From positions 76,256 to 140,255 of the forward strand of contig CAYLQQ010000001.1 in assembly GCA_964386355.1 (NCBI GenBank): 64,000 nucleotides of DNA, written 5' to 3'. This document shows, piece after piece, positions 1 to 60,042 of this stretch. The position numbers and the translations under genes are program-made. The notes under the pieces are model-generated. The model saw nothing but the letters and a program-made list of their open reading frames with translations, ran no database searches and was not told where the DNA came from. Position 1 is the first letter of the stretch, and each line of letters opens with the position of its first letter. This stretch comes from an uncultured Pseudomonadales bacterium (GTDB lineage: Bacteria > Patescibacteriota > Microgenomatia > UBA1400 > UBA1449).

Positions 1-3000
1 AATAATCATAAGTAAACTTGCGACCTTGGTATTCTCCTGATTGAACTTCCAATCCGCTTCCTATTGAACCATTTTCACCCAGCGAAGGAGCATTTCCTTC
101 ATTCCAACTGGCTGCACCCCCGCCTGTAATAAAACTTTCCCCAGAAGGGAGTATACTTTGAATCGAAGCAGAACCTAAAGTCGTATCAGTATGTACATTA
201 CCAGACCCAATCTGCCACCAAGGAACAGCTGGGGTGGGTGGAGGAAAAGCGCTGACTCCAAAATCAGCTCTGCCTGAACCTGCAGATGACGCCCATGCAG
301 TCTTATGTGGTAGTTCTGATAATGTATAAGCTGTGGTTTGGTTGTAAGCTATTGCTGTCTTTGGACTTGTAGAATAATACGGACTTATACTTCTTACGTA
401 GGCACTATGATTTTCAAATAAATCAAATTTTAGATATACCTCATAGTTACCATATGATCCACTCGGAAGTGGTAAGACATAGTACCCACCATACCCAGTG
501 TGATCACTACTGATTCCACTATCCGTTGATAAGTAAAACTTCCATGAATCAGTATCGATTCTTTCATCTGCCTCGAAAGTTCCATTTTTATTAATGTCAA
601 CTTGGTAAGGCCAGCAACATTCTGACATCCCGCTATCCAAAGGATAGGACTTACAAGTTCCTATGGGATTTGTACCGCAATCACAACCACCTGTTGATCC
701 CCGACGGCAATCCTGGAAGCCATTCTGGTTTCGATCGTACCAGACGTAGCCGACAATTTGAGCTGGAGTTACCCCAACAGCTACATCCTTACTGATCTCA
801 CTAGCCGCACATCCTATCTTATCGACTTTAAGGGTAACTTTCTTTGTCCCTTCAGTACTGTACCGTTTAGAGCTATTTTGGGTTGTAGCATCCACTGTCC
901 CGTCCGTTTCAAAATCCCACCACCATTTCTCAGGCCCATTTGTCGAAGTATCAGTAAATATAAACGTAGTAGACGTAGTACCAGATGCAGATACAGGTTC
1001 GATGGAAAAATCAGCTACAGGACAAGCTATAGCCGAAGTTATAGCCATATCTTTTGTACACGTTGCTGTTAAGCCATTTGAAACTACATCAAGTGATATC
1101 GTCCACGTGCCTGTATTGGGGAAATTGACGTCAGTGAATGGATTGGCATTGTAGGTGGCTGGAGTTCCATAGGGGTTTTGCCAATTTAATATATATGTCC
1201 CATTACCTCCTCCAAGAATAGCATTAAAGGTGAATATTGTATTAGTGTTTCCTGATGACGGAGTACTGGTAATTTGACAATATGGGGCTTCTGCCACACA
1301 TGCAGTCCCAACTCGCTTGTATCCAAGTTTGCATCCATATTCACACTTTGCGCTTGTATCTGTATCTTGGTAATTCCATTGAGTTCCCTCTAGCACTGGT
1401 ACCGTATTCTCATCAGCACCATACACTTCATATGTGCCCTCAGCCTCACCATATTTTGGGAGAACACCTCCGCATGTAACCGGAACACACGCAGATCCGT
1501 CCCACAAGTAACCATCCAGACACTCGTATTCACACTTAGTAGTGGTACAGTCTGTTTTTACTGACCAGTTTGTTACTCCAGTGAGGCCGGTATCATCTCC
1601 ACTGCATTGCTGAGCATATGGGTCTGTAGACGGCGTCCCACCGCAGATGTACTTGTACTGGCATTTAGTGGCAGTATCAGATACTGATAATGTCCAATCT
1701 GTAGCTGAAGTCAGATCGTTTGATTCTTCAGTGTCATACGCCTGTGCTCCTGAGGGGATTGTCCCACCACAGACGTACTTGTACTGGCATTTAGTGGCAG
1801 TATCAGTAGCTGAGAATGTCCAGTCCGTGCCCAACGGAGGATCTTCAGACTCTTCGCGATCGTGAGCTTGCGCCCCCCAAGGGATCGTGTCACCGCACGT
1901 AGGAATGATACATGCAGACCCATCCCAAACGTACCCAGTTTTACACTTGAAATGCCACCATAGATCTACGTACCCTGATGCTGGGGTTGTAAAGGTAGCA
2001 CTGGAACTATTTACCAGATAAGGAGCATAATTAGTTTCAGTTGTTCCTCCATTACTATGACAAGCAATCGAATTATCCGGGCATTTACTATACCAAACGT
2101 CCATATTCAAGTTAGCAGGAACCGCAACTGAACACGTTGTAGATGAATTTGCTTTTAAGGTAGTGAACGCATAACTGTTGGCTGTAGAAGTAAGGCTGCT
2201 CGTACCATCCTCACACGTTACCGTTAATCCACTAATGGGAGAACCGCGATGTCCAATCGGATCACGCATCTGTTTGAAACCCTGAACAGTGATCGCGTTA
2301 ACACAGGTACATGTACAGTTGGGACTTACACAAGCTGTACCGTTCCAATACGGCGGACCCCCCGGTTCACATACCCCGCTTGCGATACCCTTTGCTCTGG
2401 TACACGCTATTGAACCAGCCCACATTTTACCAGCCCCACAAGAGCTTATAATCCCAGCACTTACCTGACTGTTGCAGTATAAGTTTATTGCATCTTTATT
2501 AGATTCAGTATAATTGCACGCATCACCACACCTGCGTACGTACTCACATTTTGCTGCTGTACAGGAAGTAACTTCAGTATAGTTTTTATCAGTGGTCACA
2601 TCAGTGGCGTCAGCTGTATCACCAGCATCCTTACACAGGACGTACTTAGCAGTATCTCCGGGCGGATTTTGACACGACGCCTCTCTCCCCATCGTAAATC
2701 CCAAGCCGAACATAATGTCATACGGACAGCCATCACATTGCTCATGTGTAAACGTTGCACTACACCCAGATCCACTTATGTCAGTATTCGTTTTGTAATT
2801 ATGTAAATTCCAGGTAGTATTTGAACAATGATACCCACATCCTGAGGGGATAGATAATGTAGCTGTAGTTTCACCGGTAAATTTATTACTCTCAAAGTAC
2901 GGCCCTTCTGAAGGTGTTTGCCAATTTACGCCTCCTTTCGTATGAGATATATTTACTCCTATTCTGTTTGCACAGCTTACCGTGCCGGGACCCCAGCGTA

Positions 3001-3449
3001 ACGTACCGGTGTTATATGCAAATACTGTACCGTTAAATGCTGTATCAACTAGTTTATTGTGCACCGCAACACCCTCGGCAAAGAAGGTTTTGTTTGAGTC
3101 AACTGAAATATTATAAACCTGGGTTGGTTTGAGAACTTTCTCTATAGATGTGACTATATCAGGGACAAGCGTTTTATCTTGCTGTATGTAGATCCGGTCG
3201 CCAATCAATATATTTTGTGCCTGGGTGAAGTTTGTATACTCTGATTCTACTTGTACCGAATTGGTTTGTGTGCGGTTTCCAATTAAACCAAGACCCACAA
3301 CAACAAACCCCGCAATGAATACTAAAGCGAGTATGATAAAACCTGGATTAACATGCGTACGGTTTTTATCCAACATAAGAGGTAGATTATGCTTGTTTGT
3401 TGAAGTTTGTCTCGTACTCATACTGGTCTTTTTGAGATTGGGTAGCATA
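1..3449 (-). CDS. Giant secreted Cys-rich surface protein, 5' partial (runs off window start); >1149 aa. N-terminal signal anchor, tandem ~47-aa Cys repeats (KCQYKYxCGG), PKD-like domain (WWDFETDGT), C-terminal domain paralogous to that of 6036..10823.
   Basis: Hand translation of the minus strand from ATG at 3449 stays open to position 1. The ORF track shows only short spurious plus-strand ORFs here. TM helix GFIILALVFIAGFVVVGLGLIG near the N-terminus. Motifs WWQIGSGNV and IQSILPSGESFITGGGAASWNEG match WWQVGIGNV and IQSIVPSGESLIESGGSATWNEG in the 1595-aa protein. Confidence 0.6.
1620..1870 (-). repeat. Intragenic tandem DNA repeat (2 near-identical ~140-bp units) encoding the repeated Cys module ...TDWT(F/L)S(A/V)(T/S)DTATKCQYKY(V/I)CGGT...
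   Basis: gtacttgtactggcatttagtggcagtatcag occurs at ~1651 and ~1783, with extended flanking similarity. Confidence 0.7.
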
Positions 3450-3572
3450 TTTTTTAGTCAATCAGCGATTGGGATGTGTTATCATATTATGTACCTGTTC
3501 CATATAAGCTCAAAATGGCAACAAAGCTGGTAATACCCCAGTTTCTGTCACAGCAAGATTTTTCAAATAGTA

Positions 3573-4232
3573 TTACCTCAACCCAATATCAATCTTAAAC
3601 TCTTTCCACCCATACTTCACATATGTCGTATAGCGATACCAAAGATTCTTAAGTTTTTGGGACATTGTTTTTGGAGGTTGGGGATTTGTACCGGTAAAAA
3701 TTGGGTGTTCCGCAGTAACGTTAATCTCTTTTCCTGAGGCAGTTTTGATAGTGAAGTATCCTTCGCTCGTAACAGAATATCGTTGTGTTACTGTATCAGC
3801 GCTTACTGAACCTGTTTTATCGTCAAAACTCATTACCTGATCTCCTATCTTTAATGCTTCAATCGCAAGCTCTCCACCCGGAGTTGCTACCTTGGTACCG
3901 GGGAGGAAACAACCACCGCCACAACAAGGAGCCCCTCCTGTATTAACATGCCAATAACGATATCTGCCCCAATGCCCTAACACGCCTCCTACAGAGCGTA
4001 GTTCACAAGGTCTATCCCAGAACATGTCTATGAGGGAATAAGCTGTCACTGACCCTGTGGGGTGTGCCATACAACCAGAATTATCATCTGCATAACACCT
4101 ATCTTCATCTGTAATTAGATTACATGTCTCTTGCGCATGTATAGCATGAACAAATTGATTGAAAAACCACAACCATAATATGACAATAAAACCAAAACGC
4201 AAACATTTACGTTTCATATTTATCAATATCAA
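3573..4232 (-). CDS. Secreted Hint/Hog-domain protein (Hedgehog/bacterial-intein-like autoprocessing domain). Signal peptide, ~80-aa 6-Cys N-terminal module, then a GGG|CFLPGTKV...TAEHPIFT Hint core.
   Basis: Hint motif A (G-CF-x-GT-x-V) and motif B (T-x-x-H-P-x-x-T) read directly. N-terminus MKRKCLRFGFIVILWLWFFNQFVHA is signal-like. The true start may be the M at 4217. Confidence 0.6.
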   Translation of the reverse strand: MILINMKRKCLRFGFIVILWLWFFNQFVHAIHAQETCNLITDEDRCYADDNSGCMAHPTGSVTAYSLIDMFWDRPCELRSVGGVLGHWGRYRYWHVNTGGAPCCGGGCFLPGTKVATPGGELAIEALKIGDQVMSFDDKTGSVSADTVTQRYSVTSEGYFTIKTASGKEINVTAEHPIFTGTNPQPPKTMSQKLKNLWYRYTTYVKYGWKEFKIDIGLR

Positions 4233-4243
4233 ATATTACTAAG

Positions 4244-4762
4244 CTATTTAGTTACGTAGTCAGTTATGAATTTACCATGTTCTTTACTAATCTGTGATAC
4301 TATTATGGAATCACCAATTTTAAAATCATCTAGAGTTAATTGTATTATCTTGTTCTTATAAGGCATATCCGGTTCCATTGATATACTACTCTCACTCTCT
4401 TCTGGGGGTTCATAAATCGAGGTGTTAAACTCCGTCTTATTTGTAACGTATACATCAATAAAATCATTAGGTGTCTCGAAGCTGCCTAATCTAATTCTCC
4501 CCGTCTTTAAATCAATATCAATAATGATTCCTTTTAAAATAGTATATATTCTATTATCTGTACCAATAGTAAATTGATATATTCTGCCATTTTTAATATT
4601 CTGGGTATTGACAGGACCGGTTTGAACCTCAACTCCGTTAATCGGTTGTGCATTATTTTTTGTACTATTTAAGCTAGTCACCATTTTATATCCAATATAA
4701 ATAAAAAATGTTATCGTAATTACTAGAAGTATTATAAAAATAGTAGATAAAAGATTTCTCAT
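4244..4762 (-). CDS. Membrane-anchored hypothetical protein (N-terminal TM, extracytoplasmic domain)
   Basis: 172-aa ORF. N-terminal hydrophobic helix IFIILLVITITFFIYIGY. Confidence 0.45.
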   Translation of the reverse strand: MRNLLSTIFIILLVITITFFIYIGYKMVTSLNSTKNNAQPINGVEVQTGPVNTQNIKNGRIYQFTIGTDNRIYTILKGIIIDIDLKTGRIRLGSFETPNDFIDVYVTNKTEFNTSIYEPPEESESSISMEPDMPYKNKIIQLTLDDFKIGDSIIVSQISKEHGKFITDYVTK

Positions 4763-4868
4763 TGATAAATAATCCTACGTTTTATATATAACATCCAGTA
4801 TACAATAATTAATACTTGGAAGTTCTATGAAGTTATAATGGAGCAATCAGCTATTAAACTAGCTCCTG

Positions 4869-5138
4869 TTATTGATAGACATTAATTGAAAGATTGCCTT
4901 CCAATTTAGATATTTCGTGGATTTCACCCATAATAAACTTACTTTCTGGCTTGTTTTTATCAAGCTGATATACCTGATTTTGGTCAATAAATTCCTGAAT
5001 TGTTTTTGAAGATTCTGATGTTTGCTCTGCTGATCTTGATTTAGAGCCAATCAATGTAAGGATAGTAATGGTCAGTACTATTCCCGCTATAAGAATAGCG
5101 ATCGCGGTCAATAGTTTCATGACACTATCGTAGCACAC
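4869..5138 (-). CDS. Small membrane-anchored hypothetical protein
   Basis: 89-aa ORF with TM LLTAIAILIAGIVLTITILTLIG. The overlapping ORF 4859..5050 in another frame is taken as spurious. Confidence 0.35.
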   Translation of the reverse strand: MCYDSVMKLLTAIAILIAGIVLTITILTLIGSKSRSAEQTSESSKTIQEFIDQNQVYQLDKNKPESKFIMGEIHEISKLEGNLSINVYQ

Positions 5139-5194
5139 TCACTGTATATTTTCTGGGTGGTTTATTGCATGCCCGGTGGGTCTTTTCCTTGAGA

Positions 5195-5779
5195 CTATCT
5201 ATTAGCTATCGCCAATTGAAGGGTACTTTCCAAACGGCACAAATTTCTTGCATCTACATTACGGGCATCTACATGTACCTGTTCAAAGACCCATTCTTTA
5301 CCCCGATTGACTTTACCAGTAAAATCAGCACTGGTTAAGCTTCGACTGGCAGCATCATACCTAAATTGACAGATCATAGTGCCATCTCTACCAAGAAACC
5401 TGCTCATATAATACTGCCCCATTGCGTCATTTCCTGTAGGTCCATCCATATAAGATACCGTTGTTTCTGATCCATCTTTCCTTACAACTCTAACGTCAGT
5501 AGGGAATTGTGAACCTGATTCTCCAGCTACAGTCACAGGCAAGAATTTTTCCTCTATTTGGGTACCATCAGAATCTACGACACATACCTGATACCCTAAA
5601 CTGGCGCCTCCTTTACCCCTTATAACTGAACAACTCACCCGCTCTTTCGTTCTGCCAGCCTCTGCATTCTTGGGTTCAGTCAAAGCGTTAAAACCTACAG
5701 CAGCCAAACTGGCTTTACAAGCTACCCGGCCAGCATCGATAAAAAATTGTCTTCTACTTTTTGCTTCTGTTTGTGACAT
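5195..5779 (-). CDS. Secreted hypothetical protein with twin-arginine (Tat)-like signal peptide
   Basis: N-terminus SRRQFFIDAGRVACKASLAAVGFNALTEPKNAEA: RRxFF motif, hydrophobic h-region, AxA-like site. Flanked by AT-rich intergenic DNA. Confidence 0.5.
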   Translation of the reverse strand: MSQTEAKSRRQFFIDAGRVACKASLAAVGFNALTEPKNAEAGRTKERVSCSVIRGKGGASLGYQVCVVDSDGTQIEEKFLPVTVAGESGSQFPTDVRVVRKDGSETTVSYMDGPTGNDAMGQYYMSRFLGRDGTMICQFRYDAASRSLTSADFTGKVNRGKEWVFEQVHVDARNVDARNLCRLESTLQLAIANR

Positions 5780-6035
5780 ATGGATAAATAATTTTTATAA
5801 CCTATATCATTGTCCTATATAAAGTATAGCACAAGCTGTCAAGAGTATACATACATATATGGATTCCATTAAATTAATCCATATTTATTAGTCTTTCTTC
5901 TATTATTGTTATTGTAAATATGCCATAACATCAAAATCATCTTAATCCGATAGTAAGTCAGTATGCACTTTTGATACAGAAAAGTATGGGAAAATTTATT
6001 TGCTTTTGTTGAATTAGAATTGTAATGGTTTTAGT

Positions 6036-9000
6036 TTAGTGGTTGACTTCACTCCAGACATACTGGTAGATTTTGAAGGCTTTGAGGTCTGACTCGGTAG
6101 TCTTGAGCGTATAGATCATATCTGCGTTGTGTTCAAACTTTTCCGCCGGTGTCTGGTTGTCAGCTCCCTGCATATGCCTCCAGAGATTCACCCCTCTCCA
6201 GCCGATCAACCCACCACGGATAAGTAGACGGTTGGCATCAACATCATCTTTGTATGAGCTTGTTGTAATATACTCATCCGCAATATAAAAGCCATCAAGT
6301 TGTGCTACTCCATCGCTTATGTAGATATTACCCTTCTGCCCTCCCGTACTATCCTGATTTCCCGATATAAGGACAAAGATGCCTCCTTTGTCAGTTATGA
6401 TGTCACCTAAGATATCCACCCTACCGCGGTACAGGATCGCTATTTGGCGAGAACCCAAATTAGTTACGCCGCTCGTGCTCCCGATTACCAGGGGAAATTG
6501 GTCAGCTTCAATCTCATAGATCCCGTTTGGCCACGATGCGATGTTTGCAACATCAGCTTTACTTTTCCCATACGTCGTATAGTCAGCCAGTTTATCCTGC
6601 CAAAACGCATAATTATAGGTATCCTTTTTGACATAGGTTCCTGCCTGAGCCTCCAGAGCATAGTCACCAAAATCTCCTCCCTGATCTGCATTATAATCTA
6701 TACCACCCTCGTTCCAGGTGGCTGATCCACCAGATTCAATCAGGCTCTCACCGCTGGGAACAATGCTCTGTATAGCCCTTTCTGTGCCTCCTCCGTAGTT
6801 TGAGAATACATTTCCGATACCAACCTGCCACCAAGCATCAGGGTAATTACCGCCGATAAGTTCAGAGTGGCAATTGTTAAAATTATATTCCCCGATAATC
6901 CTCCTGGTCATATAAAGGCTCAGGCCAGCTGCATCAAAATGGCAAACTTGTGTTTCAGAAGGTAAGTTTGGGTTGCCTTCAACTAATAGTTCCGGATTAG
7001 AACCGCTGCAGGTAAACCTCCGGTATTTTGTTTCTGATACATCAGCGTAGCCGGCAGCACTAAAACCAGTCACCATATCAGGAAAGGCAAATGTGACATC
7101 CAATGGATAGGTTTGCTCGGGTGGGCTGTACGTTTCTTCAGTATCACTATAGGGTGCTTGGTAAAAAATAAAGTTACAATTCTCTCCGCATCCAGACGCT
7201 TGTGATTGGTTTTCGTACTGCATTTTTTTATCCTGTGTTGCATCAGTTGCTGTTGTTAACAAGGGTTTCATATAGTAATTACCACCAATCTGTATGACAG
7301 CTCCACATACATCAGTCCCGGCATAGCTGTTGCTTTGGATACTGACTGAATATGATGAGCCTCCATTTATTGAGGTAGAGAAATACCCTGTATTATCAGT
7401 AATGAGTGGGGTAATTTTTATTGTATCATCTACAAGTACTGTAATACCCTCTATTCCGGGACCATCAGAGGAGTTACTTCGCACATAACCAGCTACAATA
7501 TAGGGTGTGACAAAGCCGATATTACAATTGGAAACTACAGGTGAAGATCGATAAACTGTTCCGCTTGCATCAGAAAAGTGCAAATTAGCTGTCAAGGGAA
7601 TCGTATAGTTTTTGTTCTCATTATATGTATGTGTTGCAATAACACTATCCATGCTAGGAGGTGGCGATACAGTTTGTGTGTCTGACCCATCTCCAAAATC
7701 AAGAGTAAGCGAGTAAACCTGTTCCCTACCGTTGACAGCCGCATTCTTAAATGTCGCGGCAAAGGGGAATGTGCTTGGAGAGATTGATACAAAATCGTTT
7801 ATACGGCAACTCGATTTTGGTAATGGGTACATTTGGAAATCACAACTGCTTGTGGCACATCCTCCAACTTGCGTTTGGTTGACATAACTCAATTTTCTGT
7901 CCAGATACGTTAAAGGAGGAAACTGGTAGCCCGATATTGACTGGCTGGGAATCGTGATTGAATAGGTATCACCTTCACATAAATCCAAAACCGTAGAATA
8001 GTTACCGCCACTGTCAGTCTTTAAACTGTACGTTTGTCCAGTTTTATCATGCTTGACCACAACATTTACATCTTTAATTACTGGTTTTGTCCCGACTAGT
8101 AACCCCTCTATATCATACCGACTACGAATATTACCTTTGATTTGCGTTTTTTGACATATAGTACCGACAGTAACTGCAGTATCACAGGTAGCTTGCCTGC
8201 CCCCATCATCGCTAACTGTAAGCACAGCTGATTTAATTCCTGAAGTTGTGTAGCTCGTTGTTACACTTGCACTAGTAAGGCTGCTATACCCTGTTGCTGA
8301 ACTATCTAATAGCCAATTAAAGCGTACAGTTCCTATTCCTCCCTGAGCGTCTCCCTGATGCGTAAAAATGTCGCTTCCAGTATTACCGCTTGTGGGATTT
8401 GAGCTTGCGTTACATGTCAAATTTGGAACAGTATTTACTGTGACTGTCGTATCACAACTGGCTTTTTTACCAGAGCTGTCTTGAATATTTAGGATTGCTT
8501 TTTTAGAACCGCCAGTTGAGTATTTTGTAGCTACACTAGAACTAGTCAGCACTCCACTCTCCAGGGCTGAATTATCAAGTGTCCAACTATACGTCACTGC
8601 GCCAATTTGGCCCGAAACCTCACTCAGGTGAGTAAATATGGTGTTGTTTGGATCACCGCTTAGTGGATTTGATGAGGCTTTGCAAGTCAATACTGCACCA
8701 TCAATCACAGTAACTGTCGTATCACAAGTAGCTTGCCGACCCAAGCTATCCCTGACTGTAAGGATGGCTTTTTTTGACCCTGAAGTTGAGTACTTTGTGC
8801 TTACATTGGATCCAGTTAGCGATCCTGGTTCTAATGCTGAACTATCAAGCGTCCAGTTATAGCTTACTGAACCAGACTGTCCTTGAACAGTGCCCTGGTG
8901 TATAAAAATTGTACTACCTGTAGTGCCTTCGATTTGATCAGAGGTGGCTGTACACGTTAATGCAGTTGCATTACACGATGAGCGTACTTCATTACTTTTT

Positions 9001-10823
9001 GTCACAAACCGGCTACATTCACCGCTTTTACCGCACACCCAAACCTGATAGTCGTATTCCTGCCCAAGACTAATAGTGGTGTCCGTATAGGTTACTGTAC
9101 TGCCAACTGCTCCTGTATATGAAACCGGAGAAAGTGAAGTATATGTAGCTGATCCAGCATTTTTTCGGTATACAACATAGCCACCTTTAGCATCAGCAGT
9201 GTGTGTCCAAGTGATAGATATTCTACTTGGATTAGATGCATCCGCTAACAAACACACAGCTGAAATAGTTATCCCCCTGGGAAGAATATCAATATCTTTC
9301 TCACACTTTTGACCAAACCACGCACCGACTTTGGGACTTTCGACAAGTGACCGCCAATACAATTTATAGGTGTTCCCAACTGTAGCAACATCAGTTGGAG
9401 CCAACATACTTACATTCCACGATACCGGATTGCCCGGCGAAATTGTCTGTGATGAAGTAAGCTCACGCCGCATTCCAGGCGAAGGAGTAAAGCAAAACAT
9501 TTGTGGCTGGCTGGAAACCCAGACACTTCCTTGCCAGCCTCCTGGAGTCCAGCCATTTCCTGTATCGCATGAAGCATTGCCCAGCTTATATCCTAACGCA
9601 CTTGTCCAATTAGATGGATTTGGAGCTCCTGAGCCTCCCGTATTGGTCAGACCAAGCGTCCCCGAAAAAATAGAGCCAAGCGTTACACTTGATGGAATCC
9701 CTGAGGAGTTACAGGTTGAGTTATCTACATTAAAATTTTCGTGACAATTGTAGTTGTAAACGGAACTATCAGGATTTGTTCCGGATGTATTTACCCCATA
9801 TTGATCTTGACCATATGCAGCTATAAGCATTTTGTTATTATTGGTAAGTGCAAAATCATAACAAGCCTTCGGAATTTGCCCTGTATAGCTAATGGTAACT
9901 GACTTAGCATTTAAACCTGTATTCGCGCTGTCTGGTATCGGAGTAAAATTGGAAACTGATGTTTGGCAGGAGAATTCACCTGAAGTAATGTTTGCTGTTG
10001 TTGAACTAAGTTGTGCTGTAAGAGTAATGGTTTGATTTGGATCAGTCCATGTAGATGGGCTGATAGATATACTTGTGTCTGTCTGATCCTCACCCACACA
10101 TACCGGAGGAGTAAATGGTTTCTTACATGTGAGAGTAAAATTGTCGGGCCGATCAGAACCATCCCACCATTTGATTAAGGATGAAGTGCTATCAACCGTA
10201 CCTGAACTATTTATCCCTTTTACTTTTGCTGTAAAACTGTGGGCAACATCATCCTGATACGAAGATGGCAGTTGCACCCGAAAGCGGTGATTAGAGTATC
10301 CGCCACAGGATACTGGTGATTCAAAATTATCATCAGCCAACACAGTACTTATAAGCTTCGCCCCTTCATATATCTCTACGCTGAGTGGCTGACTGTATTT
10401 ATCAGGATCGCACGTCCAACCAGATACGGTACAGTTGTTGGGATCTGCTTGTACCTCAAAATGGGCATCATTTCTGCCAACAGGGTTTTGTCCAGATGGC
10501 AGGCCGCTACAGTTTAAAATACCACTTCCATCATATACTGTAGTACAGGTCTTTGTACCACTGCAGCTTGGGTCACATCCGCAACTTTTTACCTCACCAC
10601 AAGTTAATCCTTCAGCCGGACAGTAGGCAGATTCAGCTGATTTGATTCCGCAGTTACTACTTGTTGGACTTGTACCACAGTCACAGGTACATGAACATGA
10701 ATACGCATACACATCTTGAGGATTTAACAGTTTGAATGTAAATAAACTTCCAATAAGTAAAATAAAACAAATGTTATTGAGTATGAAGTGATAAATAGAT
10801 TTCAAAGAATACATAGTATGCAC
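6036..10823 (-). CDS. Giant (1595 aa) secreted Cys-rich surface protein with three tandem PKD/Ig-like repeats, a PKD domain (LDFGDGSD), a carboxypeptidase-regulatory-like fold, and a C-terminal ~300-aa domain shared with the 1..3449 protein
   Basis: Long ORF. Signal anchor ICFILLIGSLFTF. N-terminal Cys cluster CSCTCDCGTSP...; three repeats ending ...ATCDTTVTV. Confidence 0.7.
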   Translation of the reverse strand: MHTMYSLKSIYHFILNNICFILLIGSLFTFKLLNPQDVYAYSCSCTCDCGTSPTSSNCGIKSAESAYCPAEGLTCGEVKSCGCDPSCSGTKTCTTVYDGSGILNCSGLPSGQNPVGRNDAHFEVQADPNNCTVSGWTCDPDKYSQPLSVEIYEGAKLISTVLADDNFESPVSCGGYSNHRFRVQLPSSYQDDVAHSFTAKVKGINSSGTVDSTSSLIKWWDGSDRPDNFTLTCKKPFTPPVCVGEDQTDTSISISPSTWTDPNQTITLTAQLSSTTANITSGEFSCQTSVSNFTPIPDSANTGLNAKSVTISYTGQIPKACYDFALTNNNKMLIAAYGQDQYGVNTSGTNPDSSVYNYNCHENFNVDNSTCNSSGIPSSVTLGSIFSGTLGLTNTGGSGAPNPSNWTSALGYKLGNASCDTGNGWTPGGWQGSVWVSSQPQMFCFTPSPGMRRELTSSQTISPGNPVSWNVSMLAPTDVATVGNTYKLYWRSLVESPKVGAWFGQKCEKDIDILPRGITISAVCLLADASNPSRISITWTHTADAKGGYVVYRKNAGSATYTSLSPVSYTGAVGSTVTYTDTTISLGQEYDYQVWVCGKSGECSRFVTKSNEVRSSCNATALTCTATSDQIEGTTGSTIFIHQGTVQGQSGSVSYNWTLDSSALEPGSLTGSNVSTKYSTSGSKKAILTVRDSLGRQATCDTTVTVIDGAVLTCKASSNPLSGDPNNTIFTHLSEVSGQIGAVTYSWTLDNSALESGVLTSSSVATKYSTGGSKKAILNIQDSSGKKASCDTTVTVNTVPNLTCNASSNPTSGNTGSDIFTHQGDAQGGIGTVRFNWLLDSSATGYSSLTSASVTTSYTTSGIKSAVLTVSDDGGRQATCDTAVTVGTICQKTQIKGNIRSRYDIEGLLVGTKPVIKDVNVVVKHDKTGQTYSLKTDSGGNYSTVLDLCEGDTYSITIPSQSISGYQFPPLTYLDRKLSYVNQTQVGGCATSSCDFQMYPLPKSSCRINDFVSISPSTFPFAATFKNAAVNGREQVYSLTLDFGDGSDTQTVSPPPSMDSVIATHTYNENKNYTIPLTANLHFSDASGTVYRSSPVVSNCNIGFVTPYIVAGYVRSNSSDGPGIEGITVLVDDTIKITPLITDNTGYFSTSINGGSSYSVSIQSNSYAGTDVCGAVIQIGGNYYMKPLLTTATDATQDKKMQYENQSQASGCGENCNFIFYQAPYSDTEETYSPPEQTYPLDVTFAFPDMVTGFSAAGYADVSETKYRRFTCSGSNPELLVEGNPNLPSETQVCHFDAAGLSLYMTRRIIGEYNFNNCHSELIGGNYPDAWWQVGIGNVFSNYGGGTERAIQSIVPSGESLIESGGSATWNEGGIDYNADQGGDFGDYALEAQAGTYVKKDTYNYAFWQDKLADYTTYGKSKADVANIASWPNGIYEIEADQFPLVIGSTSGVTNLGSRQIAILYRGRVDILGDIITDKGGIFVLISGNQDSTGGQKGNIYISDGVAQLDGFYIADEYITTSSYKDDVDANRLLIRGGLIGWRGVNLWRHMQGADNQTPAEKFEHNADMIYTLKTTESDLKAFKIYQYVWSEVNH
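8150..8990 (-). repeat. Three tandem ~280-bp intragenic repeats encoding PKD/Ig-like modules
   Basis: Repeated DNA blocks (gtcgtatcacaa... units). Protein repeats ...STKYSTSGSKKAILTVRDSLGRQATCDTTVTV occur x3. Confidence 0.65.
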
Positions 10824-10887: not shown

Positions 10888-11982
10888 CTAGCGCAGTCCC
10901 CCAACAACCTTTACCTTTGCAAGTAGTTTTTCATCATCTAAAACCTTACCACACCCGCGGACTACGCAGGTTAGTGGATCATCAGCCACCCATACAGGCA
11001 TTTTAGTCTCTTCTGCCAGGAGCTTATCCAAACCTGGAAGTAATGCTCCTCCGCCAGCAAGCACAATACCATTTTTAATGATATCGGCAACAAGCTCAGG
11101 TGGCGTTTCTTCCAAGGTTTCTTGTGTTGCTGAGATAATCTGGCTAACTATCGGGGCAATGGCTTCACGGATTTCCTCGCTATTAACCTTTATAGAGGAA
11201 GGCAGGCCTTTTTCCATAGATCTACCTCGAACGACATGTTGTTTTTCTTTATCAAATGGATACGCCGAACCGATAGCAAGTTTCACTTCTTCAGCTGTAA
11301 GCAATCCGATGATAAGGCCATATTTTAAGCGCATGTAGGCAATAATTGCCTCATCAAACTCATCTCCAGCAGTTCTCAAACAACGCTCAACAACGATGCC
11401 TCCCAGAGAAATAATTGAAATTTCGGTTGTACCGCCACCAATATCAATAATCAGCTGGCCTTGCGGGTCTGTGACTGCAATACCTGCTCCAATTGCTGCA
11501 GCCATTGGCTCCTCAATCAAATAAGCCTGCCGAGCACCAGCCGAAAGCGCGGCTGACTGAACAGCTCTTCGTTCAACTTCTGTCACACCAGATGGAATAC
11601 CAATCACCACCCGAGGCCGAAGGACTTTTGGAAAAACTGAGGGTATCTCGTGGATCTTGCGGATATAGTTCCTGACCATGGCAGATGTTGCATCAAAATC
11701 TGAGATCACCCCATCCCGCAAAGGCCTAACTGCTTCAATAGTTTGAGGTGTTTTGCCAAGCATTTTTTTAGCTTCGCTACCTATTGCAATAACTTTACCC
11801 ACATTACTACCTTGAACATTTACCTTTTTTTGGCGGGCTACTACTGAGGGTTCACGTATCATGATCCCCCTGCCTTTAATGTACACAAGAGTATTTGAGG
11901 TACCTAGATCGATACCCAGATCGTATGTAAAAAAATCCCAGAGATTATGTGACAAGTGTTGGGTACAAGTGGCGGGTAACAA
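10888..11982 (-). CDS. mreB: Rod-shape-determining protein MreB (actin-like ATPase), paralog 1
   Basis: GIDLGTSNTLVY phosphate-1 motif; DIGGGTTE; MreB-like length and gestalt. Confidence 0.85.
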   Translation of the reverse strand: MLPATCTQHLSHNLWDFFTYDLGIDLGTSNTLVYIKGRGIMIREPSVVARQKKVNVQGSNVGKVIAIGSEAKKMLGKTPQTIEAVRPLRDGVISDFDATSAMVRNYIRKIHEIPSVFPKVLRPRVVIGIPSGVTEVERRAVQSAALSAGARQAYLIEEPMAAAIGAGIAVTDPQGQLIIDIGGGTTEISIISLGGIVVERCLRTAGDEFDEAIIAYMRLKYGLIIGLLTAEEVKLAIGSAYPFDKEKQHVVRGRSMEKGLPSSIKVNSEEIREAIAPIVSQIISATQETLEETPPELVADIIKNGIVLAGGGALLPGLDKLLAEETKMPVWVADDPLTCVVRGCGKVLDDEKLLAKVKVVGGLR

Positions 11983-12068: not shown

Positions 12069-14609
12069 TTGATGGTTACAAAGCGTTTATGTATAACTTT
12101 TACCATCAAGCGTCTATCCATGAAGACCTCATATATGCATCGACTGGAAAACAGTACCGAACATAATAATAGAACTGAGATTATTCCTACCCTCATCCAC
12201 TATTCGTATCTGCTCCTCTTTTTCTTAACACCTCTTCTGATCAGTCTTAAAAGTACCGAATTGTTTGAGTTTCCTAAAATGTTATTTGTATACGTCATGA
12301 CTGCATTCATAACAGGGCTATGGATACTTGATATTGGGATAAGCGGTAAGCTGGTTTGGAAAAGATCGTGGCTAGATAGTATCTTTGGTGCAGTTTTGTT
12401 AAGCCAACTGGTATCTTCTCTCTATACTATGGACCGCTATACAAGTTTTTTCGGTTATTATTCGAGGTTTCATGGAGGCTTCTGGTCAATCCTGAGTTAT
12501 ATCATTTTAGCTTGGATATTCAAGAATTATGGTAGTAAAAAATGGGTACAGGATGTCATCATAAGTATGCTGGGAAGCGCAAGTCTGGTCAGTCTGTATG
12601 CTATTGGAGAGCATTTTGGTATCGATGCCCATGTGTGGGTACAGGATGTCCAAAACCGTGTTTTTTCTACCCTGGGACAACCAAATTGGCTCGGTGCATG
12701 GCTTGGCGCTCTATTGCCATTTGCCTACCTGTGGTATTTACGACCACCAAAGTCATTTTGGCCAACGGTTATTAGCCTCAATGCTATCACCGTATCAATA
12801 GGCTATGCCCTTACATACCTTCTTACTAACAATCCTTTGCCTGTCGGAGGAGGTGACTTTCTGCTTTTTATAATCATATACGGGACTCTAAATGGACTCG
12901 TGATGTGGAAAGCTAAGTGGTTGCATGAGCGATTTGCAGGCTTGCAGCGGTTCAACTTTTTGTTTCTTATAATTCTTTTACAATTTGCGATTTTGTTTAC
13001 AAAATCCCGTTCGGGAATCATGGCATTAGCTATAAGTACCATACTATTTTTATTACATGAAGCTTTTTCAAACAAAAAAATTAAATTGCTGCTTCCTTTA
13101 TTACTTACTTCCTGCTTCCTAGTTTTGTTAATTGGTACGGAATGGACCCCATCTCTGTCAAAATTGTTAGGCAAGAGTAATCAGGTAATTAAAAATCCAT
13201 TGGTTACAACTACCAATACATTGGGTATCACAGACAGTACTGATATCCGTAAAGTGGTCTGGCAGGGAGCTACGACAGTTTGGCAAAACTATCCCCTGTT
13301 TGGCTCTGGTACAGAAACGTTTGCCTATAGCTATTACAATTTCCGCCCCAAAGAACATAACCTCAACTCAGAGTGGGACTTTTTATATAACAAAGCCCAC
13401 AATGAATATCTGAATTTGCTTGCAAATAATGGCTTGGTTGGGACTGCCGCTATGCTTTCTATAGTGGTTGCACTTGTATGGCTCTGCCTAAAATACAATA
13501 CAAGAACTTGGACATATCTCGCCCTATTTACAATGCTGTTTGCAGGTTTTGGCTACCTTTTATCCCCGCACACGATACAAACGATCATTAATAAACTTCT
13601 GATATACCCCCCGCTCATCCTACCGCTTGGCGCTAGTCTACTGGGAGCTGTGCTTCTGGTCTTTATAGCCCAAAGAATGCATACAAATGAGCAAAATGAT
13701 TCAAATAGCGGATTGGAAAGCGCTGTACTTGCTAGTATTGTCAGTATCGTCATTACAAATTTTTATGGATTTTCAGTCGTAACGGTTGCCCTTATCTTTT
13801 TTATGTTACCTGTTTTGCTTTTGTTGTATCAGCAAGAACCACTCCCCAGGCATGAACTTACCATCGCAAAGGCAAGTTCATTGGATAACCCCTCAGTCCT
13901 GTCCTGGATCGGTGGTGGAGTTGGGCTTGTGCTATTTGGCGTTGTATCAATCTATACAGTAAATTACTACAGAGCTGATCTTGCATACAACTACTCACAA
14001 AGCTATCTGCAAGCGGGGGACGTTTTACAAGCTGATACCCAAATCAGCACTGCCCTTAGGCTACACCCCGCCAATGCAAACTATTGGTTGCATAAGGGCT
14101 TAGTAGATGCCCAAACTGCATTTATGGTCAACTATAAAGATGCATCGGATAGTTCAGGACTTGTAACTCACTACACCAAATCTGCTGTTGAATTTACCCA
14201 GCAAGCACTCATACAGAATCCAGTTCATGTCAATCTCTATAAAAGCGCTGCCCGGGTATATATAACCCTTGGTTTGATCGACCCAACATATACCCAATTT
14301 GCTATCAAAACCTTAGAACTTGGCTCTAAACTATCACCTACTGATCCGCAACTTCCTACAAATACTGCACTCCTCTATCAGCAAAACGGAGACTATGATA
14401 AAGCTTTACAACTCTACCAGAAAGCTATCGAACTAAAACCGGATTATGGAATGGCTCGGTCACTTTTGGCTCAAATGTATGAAGAGAAAAAGGACTATCA
14501 AAAAGCTATCGAAGCATACCAAGAATTGTATGAAGTGATTAGACCCCAGGATCCTCGGGTGGCTTCACATGTGGCTGAATTGAGGAAGAAAATTACAAAT
14601 ACCCCTTAG
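12069..14609 (+). CDS. Polytopic membrane protein with O-antigen ligase-like (Wzy_C) domain and C-terminal TPR repeats
   Basis: Many TM helices; FTKSRSGIMALAISTILF (Wzy_C-like); C-terminal TPR-like ALQLYQKAIELKPDYGMARSLLAQMYEEKKDYQKAIEAYQ. True start may be downstream. Confidence 0.6.
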   Translation: MMVTKRLCITFTIKRLSMKTSYMHRLENSTEHNNRTEIIPTLIHYSYLLLFFLTPLLISLKSTELFEFPKMLFVYVMTAFITGLWILDIGISGKLVWKRSWLDSIFGAVLLSQLVSSLYTMDRYTSFFGYYSRFHGGFWSILSYIILAWIFKNYGSKKWVQDVIISMLGSASLVSLYAIGEHFGIDAHVWVQDVQNRVFSTLGQPNWLGAWLGALLPFAYLWYLRPPKSFWPTVISLNAITVSIGYALTYLLTNNPLPVGGGDFLLFIIIYGTLNGLVMWKAKWLHERFAGLQRFNFLFLIILLQFAILFTKSRSGIMALAISTILFLLHEAFSNKKIKLLLPLLLTSCFLVLLIGTEWTPSLSKLLGKSNQVIKNPLVTTTNTLGITDSTDIRKVVWQGATTVWQNYPLFGSGTETFAYSYYNFRPKEHNLNSEWDFLYNKAHNEYLNLLANNGLVGTAAMLSIVVALVWLCLKYNTRTWTYLALFTMLFAGFGYLLSPHTIQTIINKLLIYPPLILPLGASLLGAVLLVFIAQRMHTNEQNDSNSGLESAVLASIVSIVITNFYGFSVVTVALIFFMLPVLLLLYQQEPLPRHELTIAKASSLDNPSVLSWIGGGVGLVLFGVVSIYTVNYYRADLAYNYSQSYLQAGDVLQADTQISTALRLHPANANYWLHKGLVDAQTAFMVNYKDASDSSGLVTHYTKSAVEFTQQALIQNPVHVNLYKSAARVYITLGLIDPTYTQFAIKTLELGSKLSPTDPQLPTNTALLYQQNGDYDKALQLYQKAIELKPDYGMARSLLAQMYEEKKDYQKAIEAYQELYEVIRPQDPRVASHVAELRKKITNTP

Positions 14610-21647: not shown

Positions 21648-22955
21648 ATGCCCACCAATCTGCTCACCGATCCCCATACCCTGATTATCTTTACCACCGC
21701 CCCAGCGGGCTTAGGCCATCTGCGGGTTACTCAAGCACTTTGGGAAGGTCTGCCAAAGGGATCACATAGTTTTATTCTGGGCTTACATGACAAAGCCATT
21801 TCTTCTATTCACAGGGCTCTCAGTAATAATCGATTCCTGTTCAATACCCAGCTCTTTGTCCAGCATAACCATAAAGCCGAATCCGTTTTTACCAATCTAT
21901 ATCGAGATAGCTTGAGAAAGCAGTCGCAGGACGTATATGACCAGTTGTACACTCTTATCACCAGCCATCAACCAAAACTAAAAGAGGTTATTATCGTGGC
22001 CACTCACTTTGGCCTGGCTCATCAGATAGCAGAGATCAGGCATCATTTGATCGGAACAACCGGTGTCCATATCAGCCTCCATGTCATTGTGACTGATGAT
22101 ACATTTCAACCCATATGGGCAGTTGAGAATGCCAACAGGCTTTGTGTCCCGAGCCAAAAAATGGCTGACCTATACAAAACATATTTTGAAGATGAAAAGA
22201 TGCGTGTACCAAAAATCGATGTTCAAGCCTACCCTGTATCACCGCAACTAGCTGTATCCAAGCCTGATGTACTCATCAAACGGCGTAAACAGTTGGATTC
22301 TCAAAAAATTCCCACTAGAATATCTATCCCCATCAGTGGTGCATCTACCCAACTCGACTACCTGATGATGTTTGTTCATCACATCACTCAAGATGATACT
22401 GGAAAGTTCCAGGTCAATGCAATCGCTTCACAAAACCCCCTGACTTCATCGTTTGGAAATATTGTCAAACACCTGCCCAATACCCGTATTGCATTTGGAG
22501 CAACAAATCAGGAAACAGTAGAAAAATATACTCAGATGCTGACTGAAGATGAACCGATCACTATTGAAGTCACCAAACCGTCTGAACAAGCCTACAAATG
22601 CCTGTACACACCCAAACAACGAGGTGGCCTACTACTCCTCTTCACTCCCCCTGTTGGCAAACAGGAGGAAGATAACCTGCAATTTCTTAGTAGGCATAAT
22701 CTACTTCCCAACCCCCAGCTATCACAGCAACTCGCGCGTCTTGGAAAACTTACTAAACTAGAAATACATAGTCTTCTCATTGACGCAAAAAAGTGGCGGG
22801 CAATCTGTCTACCCAAACATCCTAGAGAGGCTGCCTCCCAGGTTTACATGCTCAAATCGAGCGGAATACTAAAGGCAATGCTGGAATACAAACGCCCGAA
22901 AGATCTTGAACTGTCTGACAAGGGTGTAGAGATGTTCTGGAAAGGAATATGTTAA
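21648..22955 (+). CDS. Putative GT28-type glycosyltransferase (MGDG-synthase/MurG-like N-terminal G-loop)
   Basis: IIFTTAPAGLGHLRVTQAL resembles the MGDG synthase/MurG N-terminal motif. Tentative. Confidence 0.4.
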   Translation: MPTNLLTDPHTLIIFTTAPAGLGHLRVTQALWEGLPKGSHSFILGLHDKAISSIHRALSNNRFLFNTQLFVQHNHKAESVFTNLYRDSLRKQSQDVYDQLYTLITSHQPKLKEVIIVATHFGLAHQIAEIRHHLIGTTGVHISLHVIVTDDTFQPIWAVENANRLCVPSQKMADLYKTYFEDEKMRVPKIDVQAYPVSPQLAVSKPDVLIKRRKQLDSQKIPTRISIPISGASTQLDYLMMFVHHITQDDTGKFQVNAIASQNPLTSSFGNIVKHLPNTRIAFGATNQETVEKYTQMLTEDEPITIEVTKPSEQAYKCLYTPKQRGGLLLLFTPPVGKQEEDNLQFLSRHNLLPNPQLSQQLARLGKLTKLEIHSLLIDAKKWRAICLPKHPREAASQVYMLKSSGILKAMLEYKRPKDLELSDKGVEMFWKGIC

Positions 22956-27907: not shown

Positions 27908-28002
27908 TGGTTTAAAATTTCAACAAGCATATCTCTATATATAGAGTGGATATAAAGGGTGCTTTAGAATCCCCTATTGTAATGTTAAAATATCTAACTG
28001 AT

Positions 28003-28074
28003 AGGGCTATGATGTCAACGGTAGCATGGGGGTCTCCAAAACCTCTCGTCCAGGTTCGAATCCTGGTAGCCCTG
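28003..28074 (+). tRNA. tRNA-Trp (anticodon CCA)
   Basis: Starts with A1 as in bacterial tRNA-Trp: AGGGCTA/TAGCCCT acceptor; anticodon loop CTCCAAA; T arm CCAGGTTCGAATCCTGG; discriminator G. Confidence 0.8.
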
Positions 28075-28167
28075 CAACAATTGTTATATATTCTCCTTTA
28101 ATATATTTTTAATTATCAGTAATGGCATAGAACGTGATTATTTTAATCTAAAACCCAACTCTATTAC

Positions 28168-28605
28168 TTACCATATCCGCGCAAGTTCTTTTAGAAACAA
28201 CATTGAAAATACCACCAACACATAAAACAGGTACGCTCCACTTGAATAACCCAAGTAATGGATAAACAGTATTGCTTCTTTTGACCGGAAATAACCCATG
28301 TCGCTTTTAAAGAACTTAAATAGCATAAATTTTGTAAGTTCGTATCCAAAACCCAAACAAAAAATACTTATAAGACTCGTTTCAAACGGTTCAAAGTTTT
28401 CAGCAATTGCTTTGTTGGCAAATATGGTACCTCTGTATAGTTGAAAAGATAAATATAAAAATATACTTAGAGCAGTAGCAAAGACTATTTTATCAATCTT
28501 TTCTTTGCCCACATATAACTTGAGCATACGGTACACATCAAAACTAGTTCTTAAAAAAATGAACGCAATCGGTAACAGATTAAAAATTGTATGTTCCATA
28601 TCCAA
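28168..28605 (-). CDS. Hypothetical 4-TM membrane protein
   Basis: 145-aa ORF with four hydrophobic helices. Confidence 0.45.
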   Translation of the reverse strand: MDMEHTIFNLLPIAFIFLRTSFDVYRMLKLYVGKEKIDKIVFATALSIFLYLSFQLYRGTIFANKAIAENFEPFETSLISIFCLGFGYELTKFMLFKFFKSDMGYFRSKEAILFIHYLGYSSGAYLFYVLVVFSMLFLKELARIW

Positions 28606-28936
28606 ATCTCTATTAATATATTATATAAAGCACTGAATGAACCTCAAGTATTAAGTATTTAAAACGTATTCCATTCATAGTATTTATATTTAAATAACTA
28701 TTCAGACCATTCTCATGATAATAGATCAACGGTATGCAGCGTTAATTATATTTATATACTAGTATAGAGTTTGTAATTTATATTGTCTGGCAGCTTTTCT
28801 CTGTTGTAAATATATACATTCTCACATCTTTAACTATTCCTTCCTCTTCAAGCTTGAAAATAAAGCATATAGAACTATACTACTCCATTAGTGTGATTAT
28901 TCTGCATACATCTCATCATTACCATAATTCATTACA

Positions 28937-29446
28937 TTGCCTGAAAAAGTACTAATTATGGAACCAATCATTTTAAGCAAAGTAACCATACGAATAGCTA
29001 CTGCCAAAGACTGTGAAGAGCTTATTAATTTATTTGACGAGATCACGACATCAATACAAAACGTCGGAGGAAAATGGGAGAATTACACAAACAACTCTAC
29101 ATTTCTTCAAAAGAAAAAAGTACTCAATGATATTCTTCTAAGTGACAGTAAGGTATTTATTGCCGAATATTTGGGCAAGATTATCGGAGCTATAAATTTG
29201 CAAATTATTAATAACATTAGGCATGGATGGAAAAGAGCCCACCTGGAGGAAGTGATTATTGAAAATAATTATAGAGGAAAAGGTGTGGGTAGTATGCTTA
29301 TGCTGCACATAAAAGACTACTGCCAAATGAATAACATAAAATCAATAAAGTTGATGTGTGGTAAACAGCTTGTAAATTCCCAAGAATTTTACGAAAAAAA
29401 TGGATTTATATTTACAGATAAGGGATATCGTTTTGAACTTACATAA
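28937..29446 (+). CDS. GNAT family N-acetyltransferase
   Basis: Motif A NYRGKGVGSMLMLHI (R-x-x-G-x-G); ~165 aa. Confidence 0.75.
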   Translation: MPEKVLIMEPIILSKVTIRIATAKDCEELINLFDEITTSIQNVGGKWENYTNNSTFLQKKKVLNDILLSDSKVFIAEYLGKIIGAINLQIINNIRHGWKRAHLEEVIIENNYRGKGVGSMLMLHIKDYCQMNNIKSIKLMCGKQLVNSQEFYEKNGFIFTDKGYRFELT

Positions 29447-29496
29447 CTCTTCGTTTTATATACAAATCTATGCAAAAGCTTAGATTTCCCAATACA

Positions 29497-30351
29497 TTAG
29501 ACTAGAAAATACACTCCGACTAATGCCAAACATCCTGCAACTAGTTTTCTGATTAGGTTATCTCTCTCCTTAAGAACAAATATTCCAGCAATAATTATAA
29601 ACAATGTTGATGTTTGCATCAGTGGCATCGCTTGGGTAACTTCTGTAAGCGTAAAGGCTTTAAGTGAAAAAAGGTAGCCTAGCACATTTAGGGCTGCTAT
29701 GAGTACTATTTTCCATGATCCTATCCTTATAGCTTGCTGTAAGTCAGAGATTTTAACTGAAGGGAATATTATTACCACAAGAGGCAGCACCCAAACAAAA
29801 ATACTGTATGTTTCGGGAGAAAAATAGAGCGCTCCCCGTTTATCCAGTACTTGAGCCAAGCCAAGTGCTGTACTAATGAGGATACCGATTGCCAGTCCCT
29901 TGACCGAAATCTTGTTTGTTCCCCTTTTTACATAAGAAACAATACATAAGGCTGACATGATAAAAAATACTCCTAGGATTTTTTGCATGGTTACGGTTTC
30001 AGAATACAAAACCAAAGAACCGAGTAAAGCAATAACCAGACTAATGTTAAAGACAGTTGTGAGCACTGAAGCCTCCAGTAGTTTGGCTGCATAAAACCTT
30101 CCCCTTTCAAACAGGCCATAGCACACAACTGCCATCCCCATTGAAATCCAGGCAACATAATTGGTGGGAAATATTAGATTTGAAGTTTTCCCGCTCAGAA
30201 CAAATATGGTCAATGCAATCAGGGCAGCAGTAGCATTAAAAACCACGGCAGTAGCTCTTGGATTTGTACTCTCTACTGCCAACACACGCTGCAGCAAGCC
30301 AAGCATGGTAAAACAGAAAACGGAAAGTAATGCAAATAAAATCCAATCCAT
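29497..30351 (-). CDS. EamA/DMT family transporter
   Basis: 10 TM helices in two 5-TM halves; 284 aa. Confidence 0.7.
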   Translation of the reverse strand: MDWILFALLSVFCFTMLGLLQRVLAVESTNPRATAVVFNATAALIALTIFVLSGKTSNLIFPTNYVAWISMGMAVVCYGLFERGRFYAAKLLEASVLTTVFNISLVIALLGSLVLYSETVTMQKILGVFFIMSALCIVSYVKRGTNKISVKGLAIGILISTALGLAQVLDKRGALYFSPETYSIFVWVLPLVVIIFPSVKISDLQQAIRIGSWKIVLIAALNVLGYLFSLKAFTLTEVTQAMPLMQTSTLFIIIAGIFVLKERDNLIRKLVAGCLALVGVYFLV

Positions 30352-48995: not shown

Positions 48996-48997
48996 TA

Positions 48998-60022: not shown

Positions 60023-60042
60023 ATCAAACTTTTGATCAATAC

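Follow-up and report, generated by a model that had tools for sequence, protein, structure and literature searches.

We analyzed a stretch of 64 000 nt from an uncultured bacterium of the Patescibacteriota (contig CAYLQQ010000001.1; hereafter the window), in which two adjacent genes on the minus strand, ORF1 (3573..4217) and ORF2 (2..3448), carry the N-terminal and the C-terminal half of a Hint domain (HintN and HintC, respectively). The corresponding open reading frames (ORFs) are also called ORF_N and ORF_C here, and the loci and proteins used for comparison bear numbers preceded by L and P. The original prediction, made from the sequence alone, had described at 3573-4232 a secreted six-Cys module and a GGG-CFLPGT junction, and we found both on the minus strand. 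Counted from its TTG the open frame 3573..4232 comprises 219 amino acids (aa); the likelier start is the ATG at 4217, which gives a product of 214 aa plus stop, and the gene call on an independent Logan contig yields the identical 214-aa protein. The first 28 residues (MKRKCLRFGFIVILWLWFFNQFVHAIHA, cut before QE; 4134..4217, minus strand) are a predicted Sec signal peptide: a basic n-region, a hydrophobic core and an A-x-A-like site can be recognized by eye, a hydrophobicity scan agrees, and an equivalent N-terminus is present in all family members. This signal-peptide-like N-terminus fits the earlier statement that the protein is secreted and not a classical intein. It is followed on the same strand by an N-extein of 74 aa with exactly six Cys that ends in CCGGG (aa 29-102; 3912..4133), by HintN with blocks A and B (3690..3911), which extends from Cys103 (codon 3911-3909) to ...TAEHPIFTG176, and by a conserved C-terminal tail of 38 aa outside the Hint fold (TNPQPPKTMSQKLKNLWYRYTTYVKYGWKEFKIDIGLR; 3576..3689). 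Contiguous Hint units have no counterpart of this tail, while N-half-only proteins carry tails of 20-45 aa; it is possibly a docking or membrane-association segment.

The GGG motif followed by C103-FLPGT, together with TAEHP at aa 168-172, had been read as Hint blocks A and B, and the profile searches agreed. ORF1 matched Pfam Hint (PF01079) with 37.8 bits (cut-off 29.7; profile positions 9-98 of 213), Hint_2 with 30.9 bits (cut-off 28.4) and TIGR01445 intein_Nterm with 30.8 bits (cut-off 24.5), and PT-HINT (PF07591) with 26.3 bits, below its cut-off of 27.7 (positions 2-71 of 137). A hidden Markov model (HMM) of HintN that we built, as we did for HintC, from complete Hint units (133 aa) in the closest relatives gave 81.5 bits over all of its positions (1-71 of 71). 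The match is far beyond chance. Every Pfam and TIGR match of ORF1 is confined to the N-terminal part of its profile, ending half-way; blocks F and G were not found in ORF1, as the prediction had remarked, and the protein stops 38 aa past block B.

ORF2 starts with the ATG at 3448, where the gene call at L001 begins as well, and encodes more than 1149 aa; it exits the window at its start, with its last ~190 aa falling beyond. Positions 1-3500 look ORF-poor because this single long minus-strand frame runs past the window start and is hence unlisted; Rfam matches in the window were tRNAs only. A basic N-terminus precedes a predicted signal-anchor helix of 21 residues (GFIILALVFIAGFVVVGLGLI, aa 36-56; 3281..3343, minus strand). 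Behind the helix we observed NFTQAQNILIGDRIYIQQDKTLVPDIVTSIEKVLKPTQVYNISVDSNKTFFAEGVAVHN, then K, then a Cys-rich, PKD-containing protein of more than 1000 aa. HintC with blocks F and G occupies aa 73-131 (NFTQAQNILIGD...VYNISV...TFFAEGVAVHN; 3056..3232, minus strand) and ends in His130-Asn131, and the C-extein from Lys132 (the +1 residue) onwards is a giant surface protein of Cys-rich repeats and PKD domains (2..3055, minus strand; PKD_4, 31.2 bits). Our HintC HMM scored 65.3 bits on ORF2, TIGR01443 intein_Cterm 22.5 bits (cut-off 15.6) and PT-HINT 22.4 bits on aa 57-131, again below 27.7, now covering positions 56-136 of 137. A sub-threshold match to Pfam EAD10 (effector-associated domain 10; 23.0 bits, cut-off 24.1) at window positions 3146-3277 (ORF2 aa 58-101) overlaps the start of HintC and is probably due to a common small beta-subdomain. 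The two genes are separated by an intercistronic spacer of 124 nt (3449..3572, minus strand). A continuation of ORF1 by frameshift or read-through was considered and rejected, as the spacer has stops in all three frames, and both spacing and frame vary among loci. Inside the spacer lies a weak sigma-70-like match (3513-3486).

An HMM scan of the 64-kb window found exactly one HintN and one HintC, adjacent and on the same strand. We joined ORF1 aa 100-176 and ORF2 aa 73-132 in silico to a sequence of 137 aa. For this join PT-HINT is the best Pfam family, with 57.8 bits over positions 2-136 of 137, and the alignment with the bacterial intein-like (BIL) domain of Clostridium thermocellum (PDB 2LWY) runs collinearly across the junction (E=4.8e-12). 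An AlphaFold model of the join, computed with a 21-sequence alignment, reached a pLDDT (predicted local distance difference test) of 95.1 and a pTM (predicted template modelling score) of 0.88. In the Foldseek ranking of PDB structures 2LWY came first (TM-score 0.89, root-mean-square deviation 1.7 A), followed by Tetrahymena BIL2 and mini-inteins, and the Hedgehog Hint structures 6tyy and 1at0 appeared only at about the 20th and 27th place. Hint blocks F and G and the full horseshoe beta-fold are thus found in ORF1 and ORF2 joined, not in ORF1 alone: the halves are complementary and collinear and jointly make a complete BIL-like Hint. The break point lies in the loop after block B, which is the classical site of endonuclease insertion and of intein splitting.

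These results bear directly on the Hedgehog-like architecture that had been proposed for ORF1, according to which this protein alone would be an autoprocessing protein that releases or esterifies its Cys-rich N-terminal peptide unaided. The general layout holds, since a secreted N-module is followed by Gly-Cys-Phe and a Hint fold, the Hedgehog-type Pfam model PF01079 is the best single-family match of the N-half, and a thioester could in principle be transferred to a non-protein nucleophile. Some homologues without a nearby HintC gene still keep Cys1 and TxEHP, and the pseudo-symmetry of Hint, visible as weak cross-matches of C-half models on the N-half, makes an N-half homodimer conceivable. 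However, the profiles are matched by half only, with blocks F and G absent, and the next gene holds the missing half and is conserved along with ORF1. No sterol-recognition region was found, either in the 38-aa tail that is all that follows block B in ORF1 or behind HintC in ORF2, where over 1000 aa of surface protein follow, and in the structure comparison of the joined model BIL domains and mini-inteins come ahead of Hedgehog structures. The window Hint also differs from Hedgehog in continuing in trans into a giant protein and in keeping the intein-type His-Asn. The system is not Hedgehog-like in any specific sense, and we regard unaided processing by ORF1 as highly improbable. ORF1 is not self-sufficient for the release or esterification of the peptide as had been suggested, as HintC lies in ORF2 and ORF2 is needed. 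Similarly, the Hint fold expected from structure prediction was recovered for the join, with 2LWY and not the Hedgehog C-terminal domain as its closest match.

Next, we investigated how widely the split is distributed. An exhaustive HMMER search (phmmer with ORF1 as query against 1.84 billion representatives) gave 2282 matches at E<=1e-3; in a word-indexed search ORF1 found only itself and the first 400 aa of ORF2 found nothing. Among the best 150 of the 2282 relatives we observed 111 proteins with both halves, mostly as 1-7 tandem complete Hint units, and another 50 with the N-half only. About 46 of this N-half-only set (clusters at 50% identity), 120-290 aa in length, show the layout of ORF1 including a tail of 20-45 aa. 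The two-gene split itself recurs in at least eight other contigs (L002/L083, L082, L090, L093, L107, L015 and L164), among them a Patescibacteria single-cell genome (L015) and a contig with two ORF_N/ORF_C pairs of different subtypes in tandem (L090), and the arrangement in the window is identical in two assemblies (NCBI and Logan). The HintN domains of the other split loci are 25-53% identical to that of the window. In each case a short ORF_N is directly followed by an ORF_C whose HintC begins between residues 43 and 76 and leads into a large Cys-rich protein, and every partner ORF_C has a transmembrane anchor or a cleavable-looking signal peptide directly ahead of HintC. The spacers at these loci range from a 1-nt overlap to 14 nt, and neither the window spacer nor the space between the halves at the other split loci contains a homing endonuclease gene. 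Across 24 ORF_N proteins Cys1 is nearly invariant (one Ser) and block B never varies in its T, E, H and P; the nine ORF_C N-termini compared all have GD, YN, F, A and His-Asn-Lys, and the +1 Lys (Lys132 in the window) is invariant in all ORF_C partners and in the tandem relatives as well. The exception at Cys1 is P0044, an ORF_N homologue that starts its Hint with Ser (GPSSFTPET). In almost every family member another Cys stands 3-9 residues ahead of Cys1, before the Gly-rich linker (CCGGG and then C in the window), which could be a domain-boundary mark or a redox trap.

For better evaluation of these patterns we compared selection among three split loci of one subtype (L002, L082 and L090b), using the proportions of nonsynonymous (pN) and synonymous (pS) differences and the ratio of the corresponding rates (dN/dS). 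HintN shows 68-80% aa identity with pN 0.10-0.19 versus pS 0.55-0.92 (dN/dS ~0.1), the ORF1-type tail 69-81% identity with dN/dS 0.1-0.2, and HintC 77-81% identity with pN 0.11-0.13 versus pS of at least 0.75. At the same loci the N-extein is only 27-33% identical (pN ~0.5) and the C-extein 30-64%. Both halves and the tail are therefore under purifying selection, with hypervariable modules on their flanks. The low dN/dS rules out that the halves are pseudogenes and that of the tail makes it a selected part of the device, and the pattern, in which hypervariable modules flank a conserved joint, is the one characteristic of BIL domains. In addition, the subtypes of N-half and C-half co-vary (Mantel r=0.71, p=2e-4), as do those of the tail and of HintC (Mantel r=0.81; all tests p<=6e-4), a correlation that linked inheritance alone could produce; the tail subtype also goes with the subtype of the partner's leader.

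The same comparison speaks to the view that the split is a product of decay or an artefact, that is, a contiguous gene broken by mutation, insertion or mis-assembly with ORF1 as a truncated remnant. Contiguous versions are known (L005, L089-L094 and L150), and decay does happen in the family: at L095 (3809-8372) an intact ORF_N is followed by two short HintN fragments (5037-5255 and 6027-6224) and then by an ORF_C, which looks like partial duplication or decay, and the Hint of L024 apparently has an internal deletion. Against this stand the recurrence of the arrangement in both assemblies and in the at least eight further contigs despite their low HintN identity to the window, the dN/dS near 0.1 for halves and tail of subfamily a at saturated synonymous sites, and the invariance of the catalytic residues. 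Moreover, the spacers are operon-like and ORF_C always opens with a basic and then hydrophobic export signal, which is sensible only at a true N-terminus. We consider a broken gene an extremely improbable explanation, so that from the alternative originally offered for ORF1, an N-half BIL or a truncated copy, the N-half BIL stands, with HintC opening the next gene, and the truncated remnant falls on purifying selection and recurrence.

Unsplit relatives of the pair exist as well. A cis layout of signal peptide, Cys-rich N-module, complete Hint, HNK and large Cys-rich protein was observed at L005, L089, L091, L092, L094 and L150. For the unsplit protein of L005 (Saccharibacteria) the alignment with the C-extein of ORF2 starts from residue +6 and shows 40% identity over 171 aa (E=9e-24). 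The window pair is therefore the in-trans form of a design that is also known in cis. When L091 (896-3097) and L094 (903-3155) are compared, Hint and C-extein are near-identical and the Cys-rich N-exteins unrelated, and L089 combines the same Hint with flanks that differ on either side; at these three loci the domain seems to serve as a recombination joint for module swapping. The closest sequence relatives of both halves are secreted tandem-Hint proteins, in which 1-7 head-to-tail units (GGCFLPGT...AVHNK, joined by KGG) are followed by a transmembrane segment and a Tim44-like domain (P0002-P0009 and similar proteins; L006, L017, L034, L064; Legionella L070/L072/L078). They share with the window the motifs GG(G)CFLPGT...TAEHPF...VYNLxV...TFFANxFAVHNK including the +1 Lys, and differ from it in having neither a Cys-rich N-module nor a giant surface protein nor a split (e.g. 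P0002, P0008 and L070/L072/L078). Their range includes Legionella, deltaproteobacteria, Planctomycetota and DPANN archaea, and the architecture appears to be uncharacterised.

Taken together, our findings make it likely that ORF1 and ORF2 encode one type-A BIL Hint that is divided between two cistrons in the loop behind block B and that acts in trans, by cleavage and perhaps ligation, outside the cell. In the mechanism that we propose, each product would be exported by Sec as an unfolded chain. Since both carry export signals, Hint could form only outside the cytoplasmic membrane; the halves would meet on its outer face, where the tail may help docking. In the assembled Hint an N-S acyl shift at Gly102-Cys103 would produce a thioester, and cyclisation of Asn131 (His130-Asn131) would cut the bond that holds the giant protein to HintC and the anchor. 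Water would then resolve the thioester and free the Cys-rich peptide; in some molecules the freed amino group of Lys132 might do so instead, which would ligate the Cys-rich module to the giant protein, as has been published for type-A BIL domains. Cleavage at both junctions is the expected robust outcome, and ligation of the Cys-rich module to Lys132 appears conceivable but clearly less probable. The invariant +1 Lys would support ligation. A Hint-less paralogue of ORF2 in the same window (6036-10823, minus strand; 1595 aa) consists of a signal peptide, a Cys-rich N-module that runs directly into the body, and PKD repeats. It shares with ORF2 a 'WWQxGxGNV...SGES' region (49% over 78 aa), and its C-terminal end is similar too. 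Its product looks like what ligation of ORF1 and ORF2 would give, and in this respect may be taken as support for ligation. That separately exported halves naturally join hypervariable Cys-rich modules to giant proteins by extracellular trans-splicing, through an amide bond to the +1 Lys, is an idea that we put forward tentatively and on the whole doubt.

A narrower alternative is that the halves form a non-covalent docking pair, by which the small Cys-rich protein would be attached to the anchored giant one, or a release switch acting in trans, with no ligation chemistry. Split-intein halves bind tightly, and in the window the +1 residue is Lys instead of Cys, Ser or Thr; furthermore, tandem genes with ORF_C only (L162) and loci with ORF_N only suggest one half serving several partners. 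According to reviews, BIL domains yield mainly cleavage products (PMC7664689, PMC4031507). Pure docking is at odds with the invariance of Cys1, of the block-B Thr and His and of the terminal His-Asn across highly diverged pairs, which argues for selected catalysis, and we hold this alternative to be unlikely. Its cleavage-only version cannot be separated on these data from the split BIL domain preferred here, as the two differ only in how the thioester is resolved.

Several observations weigh against a split, trans-acting domain. Adjacency of the two genes is not obligatory, as unpaired halves exist: no HintC gene lies within 4-6 kb of the ORF_N at L003/L085-87 (WWE3), L004/L088, L084, L101 and L007, and unpaired ORF_C genes occur at L165 and at L162 (2983-4347), the latter with two tandem genes for signal peptide plus HintC and no ORF_N within 3 kb. 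The partners of such halves may be unlinked or shared, and the unpaired halves may also have roles on their own. The confident AlphaFold model was computed for an artificially joined sequence, from an alignment dominated by contiguous Hint domains, and demonstrates compatibility of the halves and not their association; a model from the single sequence carried no information (pLDDT 31.8). The export signals of ORF1, ORF2 and their relatives were judged by eye and by hydrophobicity scan only, and the catalytic Cys thiol must remain reduced in a disulfide-rich extracellular setting. Association, cleavage and ligation of the halves are all steps that we infer from sequence.

We also considered whether ORF2 might be a polymorphic-toxin-type protein from which PT-HINT releases a C-terminal toxin, given that the join matches PT-HINT better than any other Pfam family and that one distant relative is named 'YD repeat protein'. 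However, Hint lies at the extreme N-terminus of ORF2 and not ahead of a C-terminal toxin tip, no toxin family was detected in the 1018 visible residues of its C-extein or in five complete C-exteins of partner proteins (only Big_7), and no immunity-like gene is evident. The partner proteins end instead in a conserved non-toxin motif that they share with Hint-less surface proteins, and we give a toxin function next to no credence. This motif of ~50 aa (...TPxEHFxYRPDLxxNSPxxLWxAPxxWQELPP) was found at the C-terminus of giant surface proteins at L082, L083, L090 (two genes), L015 and L150, and a looser version is present at window positions 6036-6300. Pfam returned nothing for it beyond a faint DUF7305 match; it may be a sorting or anchoring domain.

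Comparison with known systems places the window pair closest to type-A BIL domains, which were reportedly described by Amitai et al. in 2003 and Dassa et al. in 2004. Cys1, the TxxH of block B, the C-terminal His-Asn and a +1 position other than Cys, Ser or Thr are all present; the window Hint likewise sits between hypervariable modules of secreted or surface proteins, and 2LWY is its best PDB match in both sequence and fold. Described BIL domains are single chains, whereas the window domain is not a single polypeptide but extends over two cistrons with an export signal for each half. It is further distinguished by the extra conserved tail of 20-45 aa on N-halves of the window type and by the invariant Lys at +1. 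Type-A BIL domains end in His-Asn, lack a +1 nucleophile, occur in hypervariable secreted proteins, and mostly cleave and sometimes splice (PMC4031507, PMC7765530). For ligation the freed alpha-amino group attacks the thioester, with cleavage predominating (PMC4031507, PMC7664689).

Like split inteins, the window pair consists of two genes that each encode an extein part and a Hint half, with the split between blocks B and F and with co-evolving cognate halves. To our knowledge, every naturally split intein described to date resides in the cytoplasm as a selfish element of a conserved housekeeping gene and requires Cys, Ser or Thr at +1, whereas the window halves are both secreted according to their predicted signals, have Lys at +1 and carry hypervariable exteins. 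Unsplit hosts of split inteins lack the intein, in contrast to the unsplit homologues of the window pair, which keep Hint. Naturally split inteins include cyanobacterial DnaE and gp41-1, NrdJ-1 and IMPDH-1 of 'fractured genes' (Dassa et al. 2009, PMC2677866). In a non-exhaustive literature search we found no description of a naturally split BIL or Hint domain. To go by the title of a 2013 paper (FEBS J 280:3256), Aranko et al. reportedly obtained protein trans-splicing with a BIL domain. The window pair appears to be the first case of a bacterial intein-like domain that is split in nature, and this domain is probably built for action outside the cell. If so, it would be a trans-acting autoprocessing module domesticated by its host, in which each half has its own export signal and, with Lys at +1, hypervariable surface modules are joined. 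Should extracellular ligation occur as well, loci with N-halves only or C-halves only would permit combinatorial post-translational mixing of surface modules in Patescibacteria-like episymbionts. The system would then bear on how ultra-small, host-attached bacteria build and vary giant surface proteins and on how BIL domains generate protein variability. It might also be of use as a source of orthogonal, naturally split ligase or cleavage pairs that are compatible with secretion, need no nucleophilic +1 residue and comprise at least three co-varying subtypes.

In order to describe the genomic surroundings we also inspected the neighboring genes. Directly upstream of ORF1 lies a gene for a protein of 172 aa with one N-terminal transmembrane helix (4244..4762, minus strand), and its position is conserved: similarly shaped genes (140-200 aa, N-terminal transmembrane helix) are found directly upstream of ORF_N at eight other loci (L002, 2618-3154; L082, 1489-2025; L090, 3240-3779; L107, 2174-2596; L015, 4088-4666; L004, 5414-5974; L095, 3319-3822; L164, 935-1540). 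Neither phmmer nor hhalign detected similarity between the window protein and its counterparts at the other loci, similarity being restricted to subfamilies, and it is uncertain whether the 172-aa protein is a member of the split-BIL system. Recognised neighbors are MreB (10888-11982) and a gene at 12069-14609 with a weak TPR match, which is listed with the Pfam families Wzy_C and TPR. Seven of ten large window ORFs tested were unmatched in NCBIfam at E<=1e-10 (e.g. 21648-22955, 37878-39512, 54184-55560 and 58592-63890), and the genome belongs to a poorly characterised lineage. The guanine plus cytosine (G+C) content, about 0.41 overall, dips locally at 28001-30000 (0.33), at 48001-50000 (0.32) and at 4001-6000 (0.35), the last of these dips spanning the small transmembrane-protein genes just upstream of ORF1.

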